In this document: in pieces, positions 46,695 to 62,937 of the stretch
How the letters are laid out: each line of letters begins with the position of its first letter
How positions within the stretch are numbered: position 1 is the first letter of the stretch
From: Bdellovibrionales bacterium
GTDB lineage: Bacteria; Bdellovibrionota; Bdellovibrionia; Bdellovibrionales; UBA1609
DNA length: 64,000 nucleotides
Reading direction: 5' to 3'
Assembly: GCA_965261545.1 (NCBI GenBank)
Contig: CBDHDF010000007.1
Location: forward strand, 539,488 to 603,487
Notes under the pieces: generated by a model
The model's database searches: none
What the model was told of the DNA's origin: nothing
Seen by the model: the letters and a program-made list of their open reading frames with translations, nothing else
Position numbers and translations under genes: made by a program

Positions 46695-47566
46695 GTCTCT
46701 TAAAACACATGGCTTGTCGTGGATATCAAATGTCAATCTGCGTCCATTTCTCAAAATACCATCTATAAATATTTATAAATCGCCCACTTCCCTCTATGTA
46801 AAAAAGGAGGCTTGAAAAGTATTTCCATTAATTCGGAATTAAAATTAGAAAAAAACCACGAACACCTATGAGGTCCACCGTTATTACCACTCAACTGCCA
46901 ATAACGCATTGGTCAGAAATTATTGATGATGAGGTGCTGGCAGATACTATCATCGACCGTTTGAAGCATACCGCCATAAAAATTTTACTTAAAGGAGAGA
47001 GTTATCGAAAAATCCAGGGAACAAAACTTGACCAGGACTTTTCCCTAAAATAGGAAGAAATAGGATTACAAATTAACTAAAATTTTCCCCAGAAATGGGA
47101 AGGAAAATCATCAATGACGCATTGAAATAGGGAAAGTGAGGGTAATGGGTGCAACCAGTGCGGGCAATACGTGCAATTGTACAGTTCTGGCAATGATTTT
47201 TTAGAAAGAGGTTACAATAGAGATGGCGATAACTTGGACCAAACCAACTTAGGAATTTTAAGTCAAGACATAAAAATAGATTCAAAGTCTAAGAGTGCGA
47301 GTCTTCCAATTAGTTACAGAGTATATCCTGGTAGCATCAATGATGTGACTACTTTGAATAATATTCTGTAACATTCATGGGGGCGCCTTGCTTCCCCACC
47401 CACGCCCATGAATCTTATCTAGGCCCCCACTTCTTTGCACGAAGCAACTCGGTGGACAGCTTCGCTGGTCTATATAATTGGCCTCTTTTAGTTACTCTGG
47501 ACTTTTGATGGTATTTTTGTCATGTATGATTCCGATACAATAAAGGATAAAGCAATAACATTATTG

Positions 47567-47760
47567 GAAGGTGATAAGATGAGTGGCCGTTGAATAGATT
47601 GGTAATTTTAATTCCGTGAAGTAACATGGTCTTGAGCTTTGGATCGAACCCACGCATGTACCTGCACTCTGAGTGTATGGACGTATAGTAAGTTGACCTA
47701 TTTTCGCTTTAGAATTTATGGCAAAATCCCAAGGCTCTAGTTTTATCACCTTCTTTTTTT
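47567..47760 (+). ncRNA. Candidate IS110 bridge RNA
   Basis: Closing stem GAAGGTGATAA (47567-47577) / TTATCACCTTC (47743-47753) followed by a T-run; two internal-loop hairpins with target-matching and donor-matching segments. Confidence 0.75.
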
Positions 47761-49059
47761 CTAACAGAAAGGAGGAGTCATGTGGATATTATTTATAGTT
47801 CTGTTTGTGGAATAGATGTTCATCAACATATGTTGATGTGTACGATTGTCAAAGTGGAAGACGGTAAGAAGAAGTTTTTCACAAAAGAGTTCAAGAATTT
47901 TCCAAAAAATTTTCCTAGAATGCGCTCTTGGATGAAGCCACATAAGGTTGAGAGAGTTCTTTTTGAGAGCACAGGGATTTATTGGAATTCTTTATACGAT
48001 GATTTGACAGAAAAAGGTTATGAAGTAGATGTTATCAATGCCTTTCATGTCAAAAATATTACTGGTAAAAAAACTGACGTGTTGGATAGCCAGTGGATTG
48101 CAGAGCTTGGTGCTTGTGGTCTTCTAAGAGCTAGCTTCATTCCTCCACGTGAGATTCGTTCTATTAGACTTTTGGCTCGTTATCGTACAAAAACGATCCG
48201 CCAAATATCTTCGGAACAAAATCGTATGTATAAGGTTCTTGAATATTCAGGCATTCGTTTAACCTATGCAATGTCTAAAGCTGACTGCGTATCTGGTATG
48301 GCCATGATTCGTGCCATAGCTAATGGAGAGAGATCAGTTTCTAAATTGATGTCTCTTGCCAGAGGGTCTTTACGTCAAAAGACCGAAGAATTTTCTTACG
48401 CCCTGTCGGGAAAGATGACGGAAGAAAATCGTTTTGTTCTTCAACGCATTCTTGATCGAATAGATTTTTTGAAAAAAGAATGCTCTCAAATTGAAGAAGA
48501 ACTTTTCATTCGTATGAAACCCTATGAAAGGCAGTGGCATCTACTCCAGACTATACCTGGAATTGACGAATTAAGTGCAGCGCTTTTGATTGCAGAAATA
48601 GGAGGCAATGTGAAGTCTTTTAAAAATAAAGGAAATTTTTGCTCCTGGATGGGGATTTGCCCATCCAATAATGAGAGCGCAGGAAAAAAAAGTCTTCACG
48701 AACGAGGAAAGCGAACACATATGTGAAATCGTTGGTATGTGAGATGGCCAATAGTGTTAGGCGCCAATTAAAATTGGCCATTTTTAGAAGCCGTCGCCAA
48801 TGAAAAACGGCCAGTTGATGATGTACTGATTTAGTTATTCTTCGTTCAGAGTTTAGTCAAGTGTCTTTATTTTGCTCATCATTTAACTCGGACTATGCCA
48901 CAAGATTCTGAGGAATGATTTTCTACCCACCACTTTTGGCATGACCCCAAATGCATCCTTCAGCCCTATGGCAGAGGTAAATGGAGTATTTTTCAGGATT
49001 CCTTGGCGCAGCTAATGTCTAAATCTCCGCGAGAGTGACGAGCAAATAGTACGGTAAAA

Positions 49060-49156
49060 GCCAGTTATCCATAAATTTATCCATGGCGACACTGCGGCTG
49101 TGACCCCGATGTCTAGCAACGCAGTGCTGCTGTGGATAAATTTATGGATAACTGGC
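49060..49156. repeat. Large palindrome with 24-bp perfect arms and DnaA-box-like 9-mers
   Basis: GCCAGTTATCCATAAATTTATCCA ... TGGATAAATTTATGGATAACTGGC downstream of istB. Confidence 0.85.
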
Positions 49157-49183
49157 GAGTTCCTTCCCCAAAAGTGGGGATCT

Positions 49184-49966
49184 CTAATGAACTTCTTTGG
49201 TTGAACTTTCCTCTTTGCTCTGTTTAGACTTGGCTTTTGCGGATTCGGTTCTCCAACTTTCTTTTCCTTCAATGTTGAGGGTTTCACAGTTGTGAATAAT
49301 TCGATCAACAGCAGCAGCGGTGGTAATAGGGTTAAGAAACACCTTATCCCATTCAGAGTAAGTTAAGTTTGTAGTGATCATGAGACTTTTCCTTTCATAT
49401 CGCTGAGATATGAATTGAAAGAAAAGATCAGCACCCTCTGTGCAGGAAGCTGTATAGCCAAGTTCATCACAAGCAATAAGATCAAAACGGTCTAATTTCT
49501 TAAAAAGAGCATTCAATGAGAGTTCTTTCTTGCTTTCACGCATTGTTTCAATAAGTTCATGAGTGGTGACCCATAAACATCGATAGCCTTGTTCACAGAG
49601 TGAACGAACTAGGGACATGGCCAAATGACTTTTCCCCATTCCAAAGCTTCCGTAAAACACAACATTACAGGCTTTTCTGACCCACTCTCCCTCTGCCATC
49701 CGATTAATTTTCTGAGCTGTCACTCCCGTTCTTTTCTGGAAGTTATAAGTTTGGAGTGATTTAAGTTGAGGAAGCTTGGCCCCCTTAAGCAATCTTTTCA
49801 CTCTCTGGGAATGCTTGTCAGCAAGCTCATTTTGAACGAGTATACCTAAATACTGTTCATACGTCTTTTTTGTTTTTTCGGCAACTCTAGCCGTTGCAAC
49901 ATATTCATCCGCCATCGCTGGAAGTCGGAGTTTTTTAAGAGAACCTATAAGTTCTTCGTGATTCAT
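49184..49966 (-). CDS. istB: IS21 helper ATPase
   Basis: GSFGMGKSH, DELGY, RYERKS..ITTNL, DRIIH. Confidence 0.95.
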   Translation of the reverse strand: MNHEELIGSLKKLRLPAMADEYVATARVAEKTKKTYEQYLGILVQNELADKHSQRVKRLLKGAKLPQLKSLQTYNFQKRTGVTAQKINRMAEGEWVRKACNVVFYGSFGMGKSHLAMSLVRSLCEQGYRCLWVTTHELIETMRESKKELSLNALFKKLDRFDLIACDELGYTASCTEGADLFFQFISQRYERKSLMITTNLTYSEWDKVFLNPITTAAAVDRIIHNCETLNIEGKESWRTESAKAKSKQSKEESSTKEVH

Positions 49967-51570
49967 TAAGAACCTCCTATGTTTGGAACAAGACTGTCAT
50001 ATTGAGACAATCTAGGTTGAAGTGGTTTTTGTTGGTCATTCAAATTAATTTTGGTGGGATTGCCTAAGAGCAAATCTTTTATGGATTTAAAGTCGAAAAT
50101 CTCACGACTTTCTAATTGAAGCTCCATGGCTGTAGATAAGTCCTGCCAACTCACATGCTGAATCAAGTTGATAACTCTTAAATATTCATGCTCGGCACGG
50201 CTTGAATCTTGTTGCTTGAGGTATTGATAAAAATTTTCAAACACATTTGTTGGAAAAAGAATGGATCGGTGAGCCCATCTTACCATGGCTTGCGGCTTAC
50301 GAACTAAAGAAGGAAGGATATGTTCAAGAAGAAGACTATGCTCCCCATCAGGTTTTCTTTGATGGCGAGCGACAATTTCTTGCTTCCCTCCTGCACGATA
50401 GATCGTGACATGATAGGGACCCTGTACGGTTTTACAGGGAGATTGGATCACCTCATCAGGTATGGAATATGTGGTTTTACCTATTCTCAAAGTCCCATAA
50501 CCATTACTTTGACAAATATTCACCTTACAGAGAATATCTTCATCTCGTGGAGGCAAAGGCTTAAGAACTTTGGCCTCCTCCTCAAAGCGAGATTTGGTGG
50601 AGTCACTCTGATGCTGATCCATATAAGACTCTAAAAACTGATTCAAATGATCCCAGTCTTTAAAAACAATTCCTTTGTTTCTAACAATATTTTTTATCCG
50701 AGAACTGAAGGTTCGAATATCACGCTCCACATCTCCCTTGTCAGAGCCCTTCCCTGCGCGGCAGGGAAGAACCTTAAATCCATAGTATTGGATGGCTCGA
50801 TCAAAAGATTGGGTGTAAATTCGCTGATTTCCTTTAAGAACTTTCTTCACACAGGGAGATAAATTATCAATACGGATGTTCGCACTCATCCCACCTATCT
50901 TTTCAAAAAAAGCATGCACCCCATCGATGAAACACTCATAGACAAGAAAGGGGTAGGCACGAACCCAACAGGTGCCACTACAAGGCAATGTTCCAAAATG
51001 GAGATGAACGATCTGAACACCATCGGCAAATGGTAAAGCAACCTTCTCCTTAAAATCAAACTGAGCCTGTTCTCCAGGATCATATCTTTGGCTGAAAAAA
51101 CGCTCCTTGGGGCGAGAACCAAGAATCTCACAAACTCTTCTCTGAACCGTTCTCTCACTCCCACGATAACCCTCCTCAACTAATAGCTCATATATTTCAC
51201 GGGCGGTGTTACTTGGGTTCAACTTCAAAAAGTACTTCACCCGATCCATATATCCATTAAGGGGATCTGGGCGAGTTCTTTTGGACCTCGCCTTGTACTT
51301 CGGTGGGGTGTTGGACTCACAGTACTTGCGCACCGTCTTACGATTGATCCCTAATTCACGAGATATTTCTGTCTTATTTTTACCACTGTGACTCAGGTCA
51401 CGAATGCGGCCGAAAGTGTATTGACTAATCATAAGATCCTCCTCATTGCTAACCTTTTGAGTTGCAAAAGGGAGGGACTCTGTGAGCTTAGTATCTATAT
51501 CAGAAGAAGAGACTTCATTGTCTAGTATTTGAACACTCCCTGAAGATTGGTCACTTTTCATTGGCGACAA
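49966..51570 (-). CDS. istA: IS21 transposase (true start probably MISQY near 51432)
   Basis: EISRELGINRKTVRKY HTH, PGEQAQFDF, IDN, KGDVER. Confidence 0.95.
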   Translation of the reverse strand: MSPMKSDQSSGSVQILDNEVSSSDIDTKLTESLPFATQKVSNEEDLMISQYTFGRIRDLSHSGKNKTEISRELGINRKTVRKYCESNTPPKYKARSKRTRPDPLNGYMDRVKYFLKLNPSNTAREIYELLVEEGYRGSERTVQRRVCEILGSRPKERFFSQRYDPGEQAQFDFKEKVALPFADGVQIVHLHFGTLPCSGTCWVRAYPFLVYECFIDGVHAFFEKIGGMSANIRIDNLSPCVKKVLKGNQRIYTQSFDRAIQYYGFKVLPCRAGKGSDKGDVERDIRTFSSRIKNIVRNKGIVFKDWDHLNQFLESYMDQHQSDSTKSRFEEEAKVLKPLPPRDEDILCKVNICQSNGYGTLRIGKTTYSIPDEVIQSPCKTVQGPYHVTIYRAGGKQEIVARHQRKPDGEHSLLLEHILPSLVRKPQAMVRWAHRSILFPTNVFENFYQYLKQQDSSRAEHEYLRVINLIQHVSWQDLSTAMELQLESREIFDFKSIKDLLLGNPTKINLNDQQKPLQPRLSQYDSLVPNIGGS

Positions 51571-52412
51571 CCTCCATATTGAAAGTGGGACATTTTAATT
51601 GGCGACGGCTTTAAGGGAAGCCTGTCTTCAGAAAGAAATTCCATGAAAATTGAGGCAAATGTTGGAATCTTGTGGAATTTAAATACTTTAGAAAATGGGC
51701 ACAGCCTAAACAGGCTTTTCTTGACTATATATTTAACCTCATTGAAATCCAGAAACAGTCTACAAATGACAAATATGGAACCTGAATAGGCTGTCATGGA
51801 AGGACTCTCCAACACGGAGCCCCTTTCCAGGTCGACAAGAACCCAAAAGGAGTTCTTATCAGCTCGGAGCCTTTTTATGAGTAATATCAATTGATTATAT
51901 GCGTCTCGGTTGACAATGCCAAAAATCACCATAGGTCCTCCTCTGAAAAGTGGCCACTTTTCATTGGCGACGGTGGGGCATTTTAATTGTCAGCTAACAA
52001 ATAGTGCTATTAAGACGAATTCACAATTCAAAGGCAAATACCAATCACTTGTTATAAGGCGTGGGCACAAGAGATCAGTGATTGCCGTTGGTCACAAAAT
52101 GATGGGAGTTGTTTATTCAGTCATAAGTAATGACACCCCCTACAAAGACCCTGGAATTGACTATGAAAAGCTCATGGTGAAAAAAAATGCACCAAGGTGG
52201 ATTAGAGCGTTAAAAAAGTATGATTTCATGTAATGTAGGATGATTTAAAAACTCGGACATTTGAAAAAATTCGAAGAACGGATAGTGGATTCGTGCGTCC
52301 AAACTACCCCGGAGATTCATAGTAACTATTCAGGGGGTGGGCGAATTCGAGTCATAAATGAGGGAAGTTTTCCTTGAAATAGCATATTTAGAGCATCTTT
52401 AGGTTCTATGCC

Positions 52413-54301
52413 GGGACTGTAAAAATAATTGTGTAACTGCAATTTTTTTCTTAAATCTTAAAGCCACTTATGTGGCTCCACTCCTGGTAAAAAGCACAGT
52501 CCCATATTATTCGTCAATGTATAATTGACATTTTTTCCTTCAAGCGATTTTGTCAGTCACAATGCATTATAAGTTAATGGGGAGGTGGACATCTTCGCTG
52601 GTCTATATAATTGGCCTCTTTAGTTACTCTGGACTTTTGATTGTATTATGGAGCCGTAATGGGATCATATCAGAACTGGAAAGAACTCAAATAAATAATT
52701 ATCATCTTGGTTGAAAAAAAATCAGCAATGGCTCTCTCAAAAAAATGGAAATTCCAATCTCATCAAAGGGTTCATGTGTTTAGGTTCCCATACTATATTA
52801 CCCCCTTTTTTTTATTTTTTTTAACTTAGGATATTCGAGAAATACCAGAATTGGGATGAAATATGAAAAAAAATGGGAACCCAAATCTGCACCAAGAGGG
52901 CATGTATTTAGGTTCCCATACTATATTACCCTAACCATAGTCTCGGTATTCCAGTACTTCTGTCAACGCCTTAGAGGGGCTTTTAAGCCCCCTTATAAGG
53001 CAGGTGGTGGACCTTATTAAAAAACTTAGTTGTCAAAACGGTCACCGTATTCAATGGCAAACCTGTTCATGGCTGGCTTCCAGTTGTGTAATGGTCGTGT
53101 CCATCGCTTAGAGGCCATTTTTATCGCTAAATATACAACTTTTAAAGCCGACCGATCACTGGGAAATATCTTACGATTTCTGATCGCCTTGCGGATCACG
53201 CTATTTAACGACTCTATGGCGTTTGTGGTATAAAAAATCTTTCTGATTTCATCCGGATAATCGAAAATAGTGATGAGATTGTCCCAATTCCTACGCCAAG
53301 ACTTTTCAATATTCGGATACTTTGAAGACCACTTGGTACAAAATTCCTCAAGGGCCTTTTCAGCTTCTGTCAGAGTCGTAGAGCCATAAATGGACTTGAG
53401 GTCTTGGGCGACAGCTTTCATATCCTTGGAAGGAACATAGCGAAGGGAATTGCGGACCATATGGACAATGCACAGTTGTACTTTAGACTTGGGAAAAGCC
53501 GCTGAAATGGCTTGAGGAAAACCTGTAAGACCATCTACAGAAAATATAAATACGTCTTTCAACCCTCGATTTTGCAGCTCAGTCAAAACACTCAACCAAA
53601 ACTTTGAACCCTCATTTTCAGAAATCCATAGGCCCAACAAGTCTTTCTGACCCTCCTCTGTAATACCAAGAGCTAGGTAAATCGCCTTATTAATAACTCT
53701 CTTGTCTTGATGGACCTTCACCACGATACAGTCCAAAAATACGATAGGGTAAGTGCTATCCAAGGGGCGGTTCTGCCAAGCCGTAACTTCATCAATAACA
53801 GCATCCGTCACGTTGGCTATCACTGAGTGGGATATCTCTGCACCATGGTAGAGGTCTTTGATAGCTCCTTGAATATCCCTGGTCGTCATTCCCCTCGCAT
53901 AGAGGGTCAGAATACTGTCTTCAAAGCCCTCAAGACGAGTCTTGCCTTTGGGAATGACTTGGGGCTCAAAGGAGGCACTTCGGTCACGGGGGACCTGAAG
54001 CTCCACCTCGCCTTTCTCTCCCTTTATGGTCTTTCTACTGTAACCATTGCGAGTGTTGGATTTGCGGGTCTCAGACTTCTCATGCCTCTCATAACCTAGG
54101 TGATCGTCCATTTCCGCATTAAGAGCTGTCTCTAAAACAACCTTCATCAGTTGACTCGTTATGTCGGATAAATCCTTTTGGGTCTTGACGTTCTTCGCTA
54201 GTTCCTTGCCTATTGTCTTGATATCCATTTTGCCTTCTCCTTTCAGGATGATAGTTCATCCTAATATGATTCGGCAGTTACACAAAATAGTTTACAGGCT
54301 C
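52413..54301 (-). mobile_element. IS256-family element, copy 2, inside the IS66 transposase 3' end
   Basis: Near-identical to 594-2482; 8-bp TSD TCTATGCC. Confidence 0.95.
53026..54228 (-). CDS. IS256-family transposase
   Basis: Two amino-acid differences from 1207-2409. Confidence 0.97.
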   Translation of the reverse strand: MDIKTIGKELAKNVKTQKDLSDITSQLMKVVLETALNAEMDDHLGYERHEKSETRKSNTRNGYSRKTIKGEKGEVELQVPRDRSASFEPQVIPKGKTRLEGFEDSILTLYARGMTTRDIQGAIKDLYHGAEISHSVIANVTDAVIDEVTAWQNRPLDSTYPIVFLDCIVVKVHQDKRVINKAIYLALGITEEGQKDLLGLWISENEGSKFWLSVLTELQNRGLKDVFIFSVDGLTGFPQAISAAFPKSKVQLCIVHMVRNSLRYVPSKDMKAVAQDLKSIYGSTTLTEAEKALEEFCTKWSSKYPNIEKSWRRNWDNLITIFDYPDEIRKIFYTTNAIESLNSVIRKAIRNRKIFPSDRSALKVVYLAIKMASKRWTRPLHNWKPAMNRFAIEYGDRFDN

Positions 54302-55659
54302 TCTATGCCATTTTTCTGGCAAGTCAGGAGAAAGCTTCGGTTTCTACAAAATGTCTTGGCTCCCATCAACGAACGAAAGCACCCAGATATTTTCTGCTGA
54401 ACTTTGGTCATTCTCAGATCATTTTCTGCTATATTATTCGTAAATGGAACTATGGGGTCCTTCATAAATAGCAAGGTATCATCTTCAAAGTTTCTCAGTC
54501 GATCTAGTAAATTTCTAGATTTGGATTGTTTAACCTTTCCCTTCTTTTTTTTCTCTGTCCTCTCCATTAATGGAGATTCCTTTTCCCCTTCGAAGAGAAT
54601 ATTTCGATATTTCTCTTTGTAATATTCAATTCGGTCTTGTGAAAGGCATTGGTTCTGCGTATCGTGCACCTCTTTGTTTATTGTCTCTAAAAGAGACTTC
54701 ATTTCTTTTGCCCATTTTTGATCATCTTGCTCCCAAGCTCTTTGAAGCTCCCTTAAATGGTGCGCATTGCAAAGGGCATGAATGCAGGAAGTATATGTAT
54801 AATAAGGTTTCCAATGGTCATGACAAACAATCCCTGTGTATTTTGGAAGAATTCCCATGCGATCCATAGCCTCTGCGCCTCTTTTTTCGTCCACCTGATA
54901 GAGAACCACAGTATCATTGGACAAGAGGTGAAACCACAGCCTCTTCCCATTAACATTCACTCCAGTTTCGTCAGCATGAATCAAAGGTGAGTTCAGAAGA
55001 GTTTCCTTTGCCCACTCCTCAAAAGCTTCCAGAGCCTCAAAGGCAGATTTGTTAAAATTGTGTACCGTAGATCCAGCAAGCGATAGACCCCATTGATTAA
55101 AGTAACTTGCGACTCGAAGATGAGGGATTAACTGAAACTGGGACATATAAACTGAGTGAGCTTTCACAGAAGGGCCATATTGAGTTGGGTTATTGATTCC
55201 TTCTGGAAAACCTGCAACCCACTGATTCCCATCTTGGTCTTCGAGGATTTCTCCTTGATACTCCGTGACATGCACAGAAAGGTCTACCTCAAATACTTGA
55301 CGCTTTTCAACTCCAGAAGAAATGTAATCACCTGGAGGAAGTTCCTCTTTATTAATAGAAATGAACTCCACCTTGTCTGGAGTATCCACGGGTTTTAAAG
55401 TAGCTCCTTCGTGTCCGGGTTGTCCTCCTGGCTTCTTACCAGTTTCTTCCTTAGGTTTCTTTTTAGGGCCATTCGGATCTTGAGAAGGGGCAATACTACT
55501 GTTTTGACTATTTAATTTTTTTTGATTTACTAGAATAGTGATGATTTTGATCAACAACTCAATGGCCACAATAAAAGCGGGAGAAAGGGACTTCTCTTTC
55601 TTAAGAAGCTTCCTGATTTTATTTATGGCTGAAGACACGTCAATATTTTCTATTTTCAT
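54302..55659 (-). pseudogene. IS66 transposase; last ~28 codons lie at 52412-52326 beyond IS256
   Basis: NS.NSS.APS.D, GGQPGHEG, HADETG, HALCNAHHLREL, PFTNN.AE.DLRM.K; restored tail ...GIEPKDALNMLFQGKLPSFMTRIRPPPE with its stop inside the TIR. Confidence 0.92.
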
Positions 55660-55933
55660 ACTTACCTTATGAAAATATTAACATGCCTTTTTTTCATTAA
55701 AAAAAATGCACTAGGATTCGTTCTAAGAAGCAAAAGGAATGAGAAGTGCCCCCCGCGACCTATGTTTCACAATCTTTCAATACTATGGCTCTCAGAGAGT
55801 TTAAGCCATATGCAGGAACATATTCGATAAAGAACAAATGAAAGAGGTCGTTTGCTTCAAAAACTTGTCAAGAATTTTTATACTTTTTTTAAAAAAATTG
55901 TTCGAATTAATGCAGCACCCCCTGAATAGTTAC

Positions 55934-56836
55934 AATATTCTTACTTTAGCTAAGGAGTACAAAATCAATCTAAAATGTTTGGTTTTAGACAAAGGATTTT
56001 ATAGCCAAAGCAATATCAAGGACTTGGATGATAAAGGACTATCTTATATTATCCCTATGAGCTTTGTGTCAAATCTTTCCAAAGAACTTGTAAATTCCTT
56101 ATCTTCTAACCTTTCGTCTTCGGCTTCAGCATTTGGTTTCCAAGGAGATACCTATTGGTATTGTCAGAAAGAGATAAAAATAGGGAAGGTAGATTGTGTA
56201 GCCCACCTATATTTGGACAAGAAAAAAAGAACTCAACAAGAGTCTAAATTTCTTGCAAAGATATATGAATTTGAAAATATTTTCTATCAGAAGACGTTTC
56301 AAGATGAATCTTCTTGTCGCACCTATATAAATGATACTTTCGGAGTTCAAAAGAAATTTTTTAAGATTAAAAAGGAGAATGAATATTTTGTTTTAGAAAG
56401 AAATGTGGATGATCTTGAGGTAGAAATCAATCGCATGGGGTGCGTCATCCTTCTAACAGATTCTAAGATAAATATCTCTAGGGATGAGGTACTATCTTTG
56501 TATAGAAACAAAGATAGTATAGAAAAAATATTCTTCTCTTTAAAGCATAATCTTAATGAAAAAAGAAATAGAATGCATTCTCTTCAAAATATGAAAGGAA
56601 GTCTTTTTATTAACTTTATAGCCTTGATTCTAATTTCATGGATCGATCATGTAATGAAAGAAAAGGAACTTTATAAAGATTTTTCAAAAGATGAAGTCTA
56701 TAAAATATTAGATCGCTTGAAATTTTATAAGTTAGCAACAGGTAAGGTCGTTTTGGGAGAAATATCAGGGAAGCAGAAGACTATTTACTCAGCCTTTAAC
56801 ATAGGAACTCATGTGGATCACAGGTTTAAAATATAG
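55934..56836 (+). pseudogene. IS1634-type C transposase, C-terminal piece
   Basis: VLDKGFYS, YRNKDSIEK.F..LK; in frame with 47184-47367 across the TSD. Confidence 0.9.
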
Positions 56837-59883: not shown

Positions 59884-62800
59884 TTAAAAGTGGGCCTTAT
59901 ACCCCATGTAGTATGTGGCAAATCCTCTATACAATGATGTATCTATATAGGGGCTTGCGTGGACATCAAACTTGGGTTGTGAGTTGAAGACATTGATCAC
60001 CCCAAAAGTGAACTCCCCATTCATAGGAACGCCAGCCTGTTTCCACCTCATAAAGATATCATACTGGGAATGAGAGGGAATGCTTCCATCTTCATACATG
60101 GTAAGATAGTCCCCCACGGTTCTTCGTTTGAATTGAATATGACTACCCTCCAAGGCACCCCAGAGAGGTTGGTTCACAGAAAGGCTGTAGCGATAACGGG
60201 GCACACCGTACTCTCCCAAGTAGCTATGGTACCCCAACTCTTTAAAGGTTCGACTCTCTTTATTTAGAACACGAGAGTAGTCCAATGCCACAAAGGTTCT
60301 TCTGAAAGTAAAACCTGCTTTGATATCAATACCATCGGTTCGAGATCCCCCGATGTTGTTATAGGGGGCGATGATTTTATCGATATCGGGGTTGGCATCC
60401 ATATCCCGAATAATGTGAACGCCATATTTAGAGGGATCACCTCCCATGGCCTCCAACTTAAGGGCATCCACCACACCCGAGCCGATAGTGTCTTCTAATT
60501 CGTATTTCCAGTAATCCACAGAGAGGTTTAAATCTTTCATGAACTGAAAGCCCACTCCGAGATTGTAGGATAGAGAAGTTTCTTCCTTAAGATTTGGATT
60601 GGCTCCTCCCTCCGACAAAACGGATTTGGCTCGACAATATTGGTCTTCGCCGGTTTGGTCGCACTTAAGATAATCTTTGACACGGTAATACCCCTTTACG
60701 CTTCCTCCATGAACATCGGGAAGCTCAGGAGCTTTAAAACCTGTGCCCATGGATCCTCGAAGCATAAGCCAGTGGGTGGGTTGAAACCGAAGGGCCAACT
60801 TGGGGTTAAAGGTGCCACCAAAGTCAGAATAGTTGTCATACCTAGCGGCCAGTTGGGTTTCCAAAACATTGGAAAGCGTGGTTCCAAGTTCTACGTAGGC
60901 CGATTCTTGTATGCGATGCCCTGATCCATTCACTCCACCCAGCCCAGATGTGTTTTTGTTAACGACCTGGTCATCATCTGCCTCTTTGTAACCATGGTAG
61001 CCCAACTGCACACCTGTAGCCATGGAGAGGATCCATGGACCCACTTCTAGCAAAGATCCGTCTGCGGCAAAGTCCAAGGTGTTCACCAAATAGTTTGTGG
61101 TGGAAATGGGATCGTGAAACATCCCCCTCATATCATTGGCAAGACTGCTATGGAAGGGGTTGTACTGCCCATTTTTCATGGCCTCCTTGGACTTATCAAT
61201 CAATGCCATGCTGCCATATGTGGTGGACGTTCTATAGTTGGCGACATGGTTATTGAGAGACCAAACCCAATCACTCCATCCCTGAAGAAGTTCTCCCTCC
61301 ACTCCAGCATTGAGGCCCACTGTATATCCTCGATAGGAGTTCTTCCTCTCCAAGCTCTGAACACGGTGGGTGATTTGAAGTTTATCATTGGCTTGGACGC
61401 CCTCTAAACTCGTGCCCCATGGGGGAAGTTCTGTGGGATCAAAAGTAAGTCTCATAAAAGTGGGGCTATAGCCCGCAGACTCGGTAAAGCGCCCCAGGGC
61501 ATCCACATGGAGGGTCAAACCTGAAGACAAGGGATATTTCCACTCCGTGAAATTTGAAAGCACATGTCCGCCCCCCGACCGACTGATATGGCCAAAGTAT
61601 TGGCTGCAAAGACCTGTTTCTTCATCTCGCTCTTGGCAATTTTCAAAGGGTTTTTTGCCAATATTGGGTGTGGAGTAATTGTCTGAATAGTTGATTTCTC
61701 TTAGAGATGCTGGGTTGATGTAGTCAAGATCCTCTGTAAAGAGTGTTGTGCTTTGTCGATACTCAAGACTTGTGGTGAACTGACCTCTTGCCGAGTGGCC
61801 ACCATAGGTCACACTTGTGTTCAAAGTATCTCCACCTCTGGGCCCTGTCACATCCACCTTGGCACTGGCGACGACTCCAGTGAAGTCCTTGCGGGTGACG
61901 ATGTTAATCACTGAAGCCAGGGCTTCAGACCCGTAAACCGCCGAGGCCCCATCGGTCAGAACCTCAATACGTTCCACCGCCGATGTGGGAACGGCATTCA
62001 CATTGGAAGCTCGATTACCGTAGGCACTTCCCTGCCGGGGAAGGCGACGTCCGTTTACTAGCACAAGGGTGTTTTCAGCCCCCAGCCCGCGAACGTTGAT
62101 AGTGGATGAACTCCCTCCAAAAGGAGATACCGTAGAGTCACGAAGAACAGCTCCTATAGAATTGTGCCCTGTTTTCTCAATCTCCTCTCGGTCAATCACA
62201 TGAACAGGGGCTGGTCCCTCAAGATCGAGGCGACGAATGCGAGATCCCAGCACAGAGACCTTTTCTATGGATTCCATGGGCGGGGTGACGGGCGTCTCCT
62301 GTGGGACCTTCTCTTTCTCTTGGGCTTGCTTCTTTTTTAGCTTGCCTGTGGGCTTTGGATCCATGGGCTCAGCCGCAGGTTGTGCTGTGGGCTTTGGATC
62401 CATGGACTCAGCCGCAGGTTGTGCTGTGGGCTTTGGATCCATGGACTCAGCCGCAGGTTGTGCTGTGGGCTTTGGATCCATGGACTCAGCCGCAGGTTGT
62501 GCTGTGGGCTTTGGATCCATGGACTCAGCCGCAGGTTGTGCTGTGGGCTTTGGATCCATGGGTTCAGCCGCAGGTTGTGCTGTGGGTTTTGGATCCATGG
62601 GCTCAGCCGCAGGTTGTGCTATGGGCTTTTTGGCAAGTGGTTTTGCCGTTTCTTTTTCTTGAGGATCCTGTTGTTCTTGTTGCTTGTTTTGAGTCTCAGA
62701 AGTTGCTGCTTGAGACTGAGGAATGACTGGAGACTTAGGAGATACTGGAGGTTGGGAAGTCGTTTCTGATTTTGACGTGTTGGAGATTTTATCTTCCGTG

Positions 62801-62937
62801 GGATTTTCTTGAGCCAAAACGTTCATATTTAAAGCAAAAGTTAGTGAATAGGTCCATAAGAATAGCTTTGCAAATGATTTCATGATATTTCCCCCATTTT
62901 TATTTTCTTTATTTAAACCAAACACGCTAGCAATCAC
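59884..62937 (-). CDS. TonB-dependent receptor (start probably MKSFAK at 62883)
   Basis: Signal peptide, TonB-box-like EKVSVLGSR, plug motifs (RGLG...TLVLVNGRR, VERIEVL..GASAVYGS), C-terminal F. Confidence 0.95.
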   Translation of the reverse strand: MIASVFGLNKENKNGGNIMKSFAKLFLWTYSLTFALNMNVLAQENPTEDKISNTSKSETTSQPPVSPKSPVIPQSQAATSETQNKQQEQQDPQEKETAKPLAKKPIAQPAAEPMDPKPTAQPAAEPMDPKPTAQPAAESMDPKPTAQPAAESMDPKPTAQPAAESMDPKPTAQPAAESMDPKPTAQPAAEPMDPKPTGKLKKKQAQEKEKVPQETPVTPPMESIEKVSVLGSRIRRLDLEGPAPVHVIDREEIEKTGHNSIGAVLRDSTVSPFGGSSSTINVRGLGAENTLVLVNGRRLPRQGSAYGNRASNVNAVPTSAVERIEVLTDGASAVYGSEALASVINIVTRKDFTGVVASAKVDVTGPRGGDTLNTSVTYGGHSARGQFTTSLEYRQSTTLFTEDLDYINPASLREINYSDNYSTPNIGKKPFENCQERDEETGLCSQYFGHISRSGGGHVLSNFTEWKYPLSSGLTLHVDALGRFTESAGYSPTFMRLTFDPTELPPWGTSLEGVQANDKLQITHRVQSLERKNSYRGYTVGLNAGVEGELLQGWSDWVWSLNNHVANYRTSTTYGSMALIDKSKEAMKNGQYNPFHSSLANDMRGMFHDPISTTNYLVNTLDFAADGSLLEVGPWILSMATGVQLGYHGYKEADDDQVVNKNTSGLGGVNGSGHRIQESAYVELGTTLSNVLETQLAARYDNYSDFGGTFNPKLALRFQPTHWLMLRGSMGTGFKAPELPDVHGGSVKGYYRVKDYLKCDQTGEDQYCRAKSVLSEGGANPNLKEETSLSYNLGVGFQFMKDLNLSVDYWKYELEDTIGSGVVDALKLEAMGGDPSKYGVHIIRDMDANPDIDKIIAPYNNIGGSRTDGIDIKAGFTFRRTFVALDYSRVLNKESRTFKELGYHSYLGEYGVPRYRYSLSVNQPLWGALEGSHIQFKRRTVGDYLTMYEDGSIPSHSQYDIFMRWKQAGVPMNGEFTFGVINVFNSQPKFDVHASPYIDTSLYRGFATYYMGYKAHF
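62347..62629 (-). repeat. 39-bp coding VNTR, 7 full units (KPTAQPAAE[S/P]MDP)
   Basis: Unit TGTGGGCTTTGGATCCATGG[G/A]CTCAGCCGCAGGTTGTGC. Confidence 0.95.

Follow-up and report, generated by a model that had tools for sequence, protein, structure and literature searches.

We identified, in a Bdellovibrionales genome, an IS110-family element inserted at the tip of the terminal inverted repeat (TIR) of a single-ORF IS66-family element, with the insertion point GTAA|CTATTCA. The right end of this 1.7-kb IS110 also terminates in GTAA, so the 18-bp IS66 TIR is rebuilt at the junction. In our overall reading, which we consider likely, a bridge-RNA-type IS110 targets the IS66 tip, rebuilds its TIR and thereby permits tandem arrays.

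An IS66–IS110 composite with a restored IS66 terminus

The window, a 64,000-nucleotide stretch of contig CBDHDF010000007.1, contains one such composite, nested within an IS1634-family element and itself interrupted by two further insertions:

47184..47367, +: IS1634-family element, 5' part, interrupted by the composite (contig join 47359->55934, runs X1-X3)
47360..47367, unstranded: IS66 8-bp target-site duplication (TSD), left copy AATATTCT
47368..47371, +: original IS66 tip GT and crossover core AA, now the outer junction (left ends, junction classes)
47372..47415, +: IS110 left-end box with TIR-like arm, hairpin and inner sub-terminal repeat ATGAATCT at 47408 (clade-conserved TCATG...CCCC...ATGAA)
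47555..47780, +: putative bridge RNA region (conserved blocks in an alignment with 19 related loci; fold z -1.67)
47591..47597, +: predicted target guide TGAATAG, reverse complement of CTATTCA (TIR positions 5-11; 7/7 match; covariation)
47618..47625, +: predicted second target guide GAAGTAAC, outer flank and core (covariation p<1e-4)
47684..47691, +: predicted donor guide TATAGTAA, matching the right end (covariation 85/105, p<1e-4)
47782..48754, +: IS110 transposase, 5' part (PF01548, PF02371; NF033542 from an intact copy)
48755..51999, -: IS21-family element (istA, istB) in the IS110 transposase, 5-bp TSD AATAG (join 48749->52000)
52005..52233, +: IS110 transposase, 3' part
52234..52325, +: IS110 right end, with sub-terminal repeat GGAGATTCAT at 52311-52320, then AGT and core AA
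52322..52339, unstranded: regenerated IS66 right TIR; minus-strand IS66 stop at 52326-52328
52322..55933, -: single-ORF IS66-family element, 1715 bp intact, transposase start 55659 (PF03050, NF033517, free copies)
52413..54301, -: IS256-family element near the 3' end of the IS66 transposase, 8-bp TSD TCTATGCC (join 52404->54302)
55916..55933, unstranded: IS66 left TIR, unoccupied
55934..55941, unstranded: 8-bp TSD, right copy
55934..56836, +: IS1634-family transposase, 3' part, interrupted (NF033559)

All bases given in an earlier note on this DNA were recovered, base for base. The TIR that it called perfect, GTAACTATTCAGGGGGTG at 52322-52339, matches 55916-55933 exactly in reverse complement, and the outer junction that it found TIR-like (47368-47385) lies at an edit distance of 3 from the TIR. 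The TSD that it described indeed borders both the outer IS110 end and the far IS66 end, and the IS66 stop codon (TAG, minus strand) falls within the crossover and is unchanged. Junction classes place the crossover core at AA (47370-71 and 52324-25). At the 12 right junctions that are neither TIR nor tandem, the base following TAA is C in seven, G in four and A in one; the C at 52326 is therefore that of IS66, and IS110 supplies GT only. Both transposases of the window copy are broken by insertions absent from the note, the IS110 gene by the IS21 and the IS66 gene by the IS256, which cuts it 27 codons before its stop; this IS66 could move only in trans. The empty site, with 47359 joined to 55934 and 8 bases in common, occurs in three of four read runs, all three from one sample, a join that is expected because the genome has other intact copies of that IS1634.

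Family assignment of the two elements

Judged by its sequence, the IS110 element belongs to an ISPpu9/ISAisp4-like clade and has a putative bridge RNA in its left end. Its transposase carries PF01548 (DEDD_Tnp_IS110, 82.8 bits) and PF02371 (Transposase_20, 53.1 bits), an intact copy scores 245.5 against NF033542 (NCBIfam IS110; cut-off 140), and a structure match to the 8WT6 family (IS621) was recovered at E 2.7e-15. The non-coding ends span 410 bp on the left, upstream of the transposase, and 92 bp on the right. The element inserts without a TSD, and its AA core is read from 37 right and 26 left junctions; together, the domains, the long upstream non-coding region, the shared short core and the guide segments place it in the IS110 group. 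Placement in the IS1111 group (IS4321-like), defined by 11-13-bp sub-terminal inverted repeats 7 and 3 bp from the ends and a long downstream non-coding region, was rejected: here a single 8-bp repeat lies 3 bp from the right end and ~40 bp from the left, and the long region is upstream. Between full and mini elements, the right sub-terminal repeat and the left inner repeat change together. The assembly lacks one A of an A-tract in the IS110 gene (48684-48691); the intact tract has 9 A in short-read contigs, and a programmed frameshift was discarded as an explanation, since the contigs of three runs carry the intact tract only. The host scores 285 against NF033517 (cut-off 180) and has the GTAA-starting TIRs and 8-bp TSD of the IS66 family; we take its single-ORF form to be the ISBst12 type. 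Matched 8-bp TSDs surround 4 free and 9 composite copies.

Predicted guides and target preference

Across 15 elements, three guide columns covary with each element's own target or donor. The predicted target guide column, TGAATAG, gave a permutation p of 0.0017 over these elements and matches its target at all seven positions, and real flanks respect only GT-AA of the second target guide. Target-guide agreement among relatives is modest, at 64/105 against a null of 54, and the related loci are not independent. No fourth guide was identified with confidence, and the guide region folds only weakly better than shuffles. The covariation set left out near-duplicates (L109, L168, L173) and two loci (L117, L154) whose target flank was unusable; L031 and L124 were dropped because the end-finding pattern did not match them, and L113/L114/L149/L156 because no end could be read. 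One further read run (X5; small share, another organism) covers a related transposase and not the ends.

Genome-wide, 15 of 33 TIR sites of this IS66 (IS66a) are occupied; the 19 ends of a second IS66, also GTAAC-ended (IS66b), and the 26 arms of a 103-bp MITE are all unoccupied. Exact 11-mers outside IS66 were occupied in one of only three instances, and the 11-mer may by itself suffice as a target. The 37 IS110 right junctions divide into 15 at TIRs, 10 in tandem and 12 elsewhere. Left ends are clustered, 19 of 36 falling within 6% of the genome, a pattern suggestive of local hopping. Among the 13 complete IS66 copies, end occupancy divides 5/4/4 by hand tally (binomial P=0.17) and fits independent arrival.

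Composites, arrays and the outer end

The earlier note had proposed that the regenerated target allows tandem re-insertion, and the genome bears this out. We recovered ten tandem right-end/left-end junctions, mixed left-end variants (haplotypes) at four of the nine traceable ones, and two further junctions at which the right end of a mini-element is followed by a full element; the mixed haplotypes support re-insertion at a rebuilt site. By sequence, a circle junction is indistinguishable from a tandem junction. Homologous recombination, amplification or assembly error among near-identical copies could also generate arrays and composites: the assembly shows homopolymer errors in the IS110 element and many rearrangements, some repeats take in flanking DNA (C7:228-232 kb, C7:311-313 kb), and the tandem junction is absent from the joins listed in short-read contigs. 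We nevertheless hold this origin to be highly improbable, given that the ten junctions are base-precise, that adjacent units at those four junctions differ by a non-homopolymer variant, that two junctions join different element types, and that TSD pairs close correctly around the composites.

The other composites that the note had suggested looking for exist: nine were found, with nine different 8-bp TSDs, and a later arrival of IS110 fits them equally well. Its proposal that IS66 carries the IS110 as cargo fared less well, as we saw no sign of movement as a unit and the haplotypes of IS66 and IS110 do not travel together; this test has low power because the copies are nearly identical, and its outcome is compatible with some composite movement. 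Two candidate markers of such movement were discarded: the elements inserted at IS66 position 84-91 are not the same (one IS256, one IS21-like), and an IS4-like element at IS110 position 1175 is found in either orientation. Taken further than in the note, the proposal has the IS110 left end selected as a working IS66 TIR, giving cargo carriage and 44-51-bp palindromes that move as MITEs, which we think rather unlikely; that the left end is at once bridge donor arm and IS66 TIR, each IS66 struck becoming a carrier and spawning a 51-bp MITE, strikes us as equally doubtful. The distinct TSDs of the composites and the excess, in-register TIR likeness of the outer end speak for dual use, as do 103-bp IS66-type MITEs with variant arms and 8-bp TSDs, by which the transposase tolerates some arm variation. 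The strongest hint comes from three palindromic units (C2:618569-618619, C6:99928-99978, C10:204619-204662), both arms of left-end type, with perfect and different 8-bp TSDs; a further such unit has no TSD, and one locus, repeated seven times, has a 7/8 TSD match. However, arm type and internal breakpoint vary among the three units, which would be expected if each arose by its own deletion between copies of the direct repeat CCCATGAAT found in double-ended composites (four such doubles are known in the genome). Such collapses do occur, as is shown by three other end types in which a left-end arm is fused to IS66 sub-terminal DNA; the palindromes may therefore be deletion scars. Moreover, no private marker is common to any two composites, the outer end always has the native inner TIR as a competitor, and the contig joins listed include no composite circle or joint.

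The note had also read the donor site as mimicking the host TIR, and this stands in part. The outer end is nearer the TIR than clade motifs predict (null 7e-4), with a G-run in exact register, and this G-run alone goes beyond the clade motifs (P about 7e-4). The likeness otherwise belongs mostly to a donor motif ancestral to the clade (TTCAYRNNAA at the right end, AA-C/A-NN-TCATG...CCCC...ATGAA at the left), which relatives with unrelated targets have kept. GTAA right ends occur at 10 of 24 related loci, none of these ten beside IS66. In the present genome, 24 of 26 free full-type left ends start G-TAAC. Half of what the note had named as counting against it was found, in that 16 relatives lack the TIR-like G-run (edit distance 5-10 versus 3 here). 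The G-run can be explained by hairpin pairing within the left end or by capture from the TIR. Derivation of the left end from the genome's second IS66 was rejected, the latter's TIR being GTAACTGCTCGCA; ends that seemed converted and then read CAATGCC actually have another IS inserted after the G-run; and the ungapped score (12/18) was set aside as non-discriminating, since 164 of 3539 background sites reach it. A single-protein scan of genome contigs for DNA of IS110 relatives gave nothing, searches of 41, 384 and 401 genomes found nothing above 41% identity within the E-value limits applied, plasmid matches were all below 60%, and viral contigs gave one match, at 35%. Seven proteins 65-80% identical to the transposase exist, with no readable DNA. 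No close relatives being available as DNA, the clade comparison rests on loci at about 39-51%.

Proposed mechanism

We therefore return to the reading of an IS110 that hunts a rebuilt site. The left-end bridge RNA, presumably expressed, would read the 11-bp site GT-AA-CTATTCA, which in this genome is the TIR tip of one IS66, and a putative IS110 circle junction would recombine with it at the AA core. The GTAA right end is ancestral in the clade and the outer flank hardly read, so the right junction recreates both the site and a perfect IS66 TIR. IS66 is left with two native ends, the rebuilt one presumably still active, and the rebuilt site can take further copies, giving head-to-tail arrays. 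IS66 probably arrived first and IS110 afterwards, which would explain the presence of the IS66 TSD beside the outer end. The look-alike at that end is mostly clade donor motif plus a G-run, from hairpin pairing or TIR pickup, and is probably not routinely used by IS66.

Comparison with known systems

IS4321 and IS5075, on which reference lists give a 2003 title by Partridge and Hall, cut the TIR in two and block their host transposon, whereas the present IS110 cuts four bases from the tip and the TIR is restored. IS4321 and IS5075 insert in TIRs of Tn21-family transposons (PMC8269217) and likewise find a safe harbour in the terminal repeat of another element; they differ in belonging to the IS1111 group and having a Tn3-family host, as opposed to the long left end and IS66 host seen here. 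ISAisp4, listed alongside ISPpu9 in one data set, shares a C-terminal NAPRW motif with the present element by eye (PMC11187229). ISPpu9 of Pseudomonas putida has a 43-bp left box whose inverted repeat recurs in the target half beyond the right end; with MITEPpu9 it shares the left box, a dinucleotide core and non-autonomous mini-elements with our system, but targets REP sequences with an AG core (PMC12288879). Mutation of its shared palindrome left circle formation intact (PMC12288879), and left-end/target likeness thus has a precedent that involves no second transposase. The IS621 bridge-RNA system is similar: its DEDD and Tnp domains go with a left-end RNA that carries both target and donor guides, a core of two nucleotides and about 11 specified bases (PMC11208160); here, however, the core is AA, not CT, specificity lies nearly all on one side (2+2+7), and of the predicted guides the one for the right half of the target is the first along the RNA. 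ISEc21, also of the IS110 group with an upstream non-coding region and targeting another IS family, differs in its site, the catalytic codons of IS3-family transposases as opposed to an element's end (PMC11187229).

Implications

That IS110 elements hunt the ends of other elements is already known. Our literature search on IS66 end recognition returned no mechanistic paper; if the outer end does serve IS66, one end would be read by two unrelated transposases and would also be a handle on that recognition. For bridge-recombinase engineering, a donor arm sharing the few bases that are read in the left part of the target would give a reusable landing site or unwanted multimers. The composite is a natural case in which insertion restores its own target exactly, contradicting a general statement in a 2026 preprint, and in which the host IS keeps two native ends. 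It offers an uncomplicated way to build tandem IS110 arrays and to parasitise another IS without harm.

Nested insertion and regeneration of the IS66 end

Five insertion sequences (IS1634, IS66, IS110, IS21 and IS256) are nested at the locus in the window:

47360-47367 and 55934-55941: 8-bp duplication AATATTCT of IS66
IS66: single-ORF, 1715 bp when intact, splitting an IS1634 gene
IS110: 1704 bp with a 400-aa transposase when intact, inserted in the right TIR of IS66, at its tip
48755-51999: IS21, interrupting the IS110 transposase
52413-54301: IS256, cutting the IS66 transposase 27 codons ahead of its stop

Short-read contigs from three runs of one sample contain the empty form of every insertion, namely IS1634 without the composite (IS66 plus IS110), IS110 without IS21, and IS66 without IS256. 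Because these contigs show the A-tract of the IS110 gene in its intact form only, the frameshift in most assembled copies (reading frame open in 8 of 26 rows) is an assembly error. The same frameshift, at window 48684-48691, recurs in three related database proteins (P0005, P0006 and P0015), whose truncations may also be assembly errors.

The junctions are as the earlier note described them: the IS66 TIR is rebuilt perfectly (52322-52339, matching the unoccupied left TIR exactly), the outer junction resembles it at an edit distance of 3, and the IS66 TSD adjoins the outer IS110 end. The IS110 crossover core is AA, and the element therefore contributes just GT to the rebuilding; at the 12 right junctions next to neither a TIR nor a tandem copy, the base following the core is C (7), G (4) or A (1). 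Nine IS66+IS110 composites were recovered in the genome, every one closed by its own distinct 8-bp TSD, with one TSD pair split between two contigs; TSDs also flank four free IS66 copies.

Positions 1-59800 of the window and the genome carry an extreme IS load, with about 80 full copies of an IS4-like element and many of IS21 and IS256. IS256 contains 65 bp of IS110 left-end sequence (window 47451-47515 and 52584-52647, 95% identical), a segment that, being carried within that element, is present dozens of times in the genome. A large ORF at 59884-62937, labelled by eye as TonB-dependent-receptor-like, has a 39-bp tandem repeat (13-aa unit) close to its N-terminus.

Target preference and tandem arrays

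Among 37 IS110 right junctions genome-wide, 15 lie next to an IS66 TIR, 10 next to another left end and 12 elsewhere, six of these last inside other IS110 copies. Occupancy reaches 15 of 33 IS66 TIR sites in the genome and, outside IS66, one of the three exact copies of the 11-mer, as against 0/19 ends of a second IS66 that likewise start GTAAC and 0/26 arms of a 103-bp IS66-type MITE. The outer flanks of inserted copies are similar to the outer flanks of free TIRs; together with the occupancy, this gives a recognised site of about GT-AA-CTATTCA. In a duplicated segment (C2:559493 and C2:591667), the same base is a GTATC-type MITE end in one copy and an IS110 left end in the other, hinting at rare insertion into a core-mismatched, guide-matching site. 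Right-end duplications of 22-23 bp within arrays (C7:122937-122961 and 266568-266612) arose where IS110 inserted into a near-cognate site within its own right end.

Tandem re-insertion at the regenerated target, proposed earlier, is favoured over local amplification, since at four of nine traceable junctions the two adjoining copies are told apart by a single-base variant of the left end that lies in no homopolymer, and at two further junctions a full element comes after the right end of a mini-element (105 bp). Copy-and-paste and half-match reactions, reported for IS621 in a preprint (10.64898/2026.08.31.748434), may likewise help to generate arrays and self-insertions. The non-autonomous mini-IS110 has the same end boxes (L004:245-353, at C6:3544; L001:253-350; L002:352-462) and is located at older IS66-type ends; compared with the full element, its sub-terminal repeat is changed on both sides at the paired base. 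In a Patescibacteria-group contig, the relative L117 shows a right-end/left-end junction, from either a circle or a tandem.

Putative bridge RNA and likeness of the outer end to the TIR

Aligned with 19 related loci, the IS110 left end retains the conserved blocks of its clade. Across 15 elements, each with its own target and set against shuffled pairings, guide matches number 64/105 for the right target half (null 54, p=0.0017; 7/7 in the IS110 studied here), 64/105 for the left target half (null 47) and 85/105 for the element right end (null 63), the p-values being optimistic because related loci are not independent. These three covarying columns match the bridge-RNA logic described for IS621 (PMC11208160), the RNA here being putative.

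The proposal that the donor mimics the TIR stands in part. Relatives at ~39-51% identity, with unrelated targets, are built alike as donors: the right end reads TTCAYRNNAA, and the left end AA-C/A-NN-TCATG followed by a C-run and ATGAA. The right end finishes GTAA in 10 of 24 related loci whose right end ends AA, none of those ten having an IS66 gene there; for these reasons the GTAA that rebuilds the TIR is ancestral, with IS66 tips a ready-made fit. Beyond the clade motif, however, a G-run brings the outer end to its edit distance of 3 from the TIR, compared with 5-10 in 16 relatives, so the TIR-like G-run is not conserved in these relatives; given the clade motif, the chance of such likeness is ~7e-4. 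The G-run could reflect pairing with the conserved C-run in a left-end hairpin, which also occurs in one of the 16 relatives (L185), or selection for recognition by IS66; it may instead have been captured from the TIR, given that fusions of a left arm to IS66 sub-terminal DNA are seen at three end types. ISPpu9, whose left end likewise resembles its target, is probably the closest element studied so far: a palindrome is common to left box and target, and mutating it left circle formation intact (PMC12288879).

Possible movement of the composite

A TSD outside IS110 is expected whether IS110 arrived before or after IS66 moved. No linkage between IS66 and IS110 variants was found among the genome copies, at low power, and candidate shared nested insertions, tried as markers of composite movement, proved to be independent insertions, again at low power. 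IS110 inserts at both IS66 ends; a hand tally of 13 complete IS66 copies gives 0, 1 and 2 occupied ends in 5, 4 and 4, which fits independence (P=0.17, low power). Over half of the left ends (19/36) fall within one 271-kb stretch (C7:81-352 kb). We regard the suggestion that IS66 carries IS110 as cargo as rather unlikely.

The best hint that the outer end is used comes from three palindromes, two of 51 bp and one of 44 bp (C2:618569-618619, C6:99928-99978 and C10:204619-204662), in each of which two IS110 left arms are combined and flanked by a perfect 8-bp TSD; a fourth such unit has no TSD. These could be MITEs, but neither arm type nor breakpoint is uniform among them. Such variation suits the reading towards which we lean slightly, that they are scars left when a double-ended composite, whose two left ends are inverted, underwent deletion between the direct repeats of CCCATGAAT that those ends contain, an event that yields the same sequence and retains the old TSD. 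The remnant of 'nearly precise excision' of Tn10 derivatives is roughly 50 bp. The proposed deletion resembles that process, which is known to occur by replication slippage (PMC12524634).

Relation to known elements

In the literature covered, we found no report of IS110 targeting IS66 ends or restoring a host TIR, although ISfinder, subscription journals and supplements (PMC11208160, bioRxiv) lay outside this scope and may hold one; 'IS66' is absent from the text and five supplements of PMC11187229. IS110-family elements that hunt TIRs are already known in IS4321/IS5075 (PMC8269217). The IS110 described here is a real and clean case of an element that both hunts TIRs and regenerates its target.
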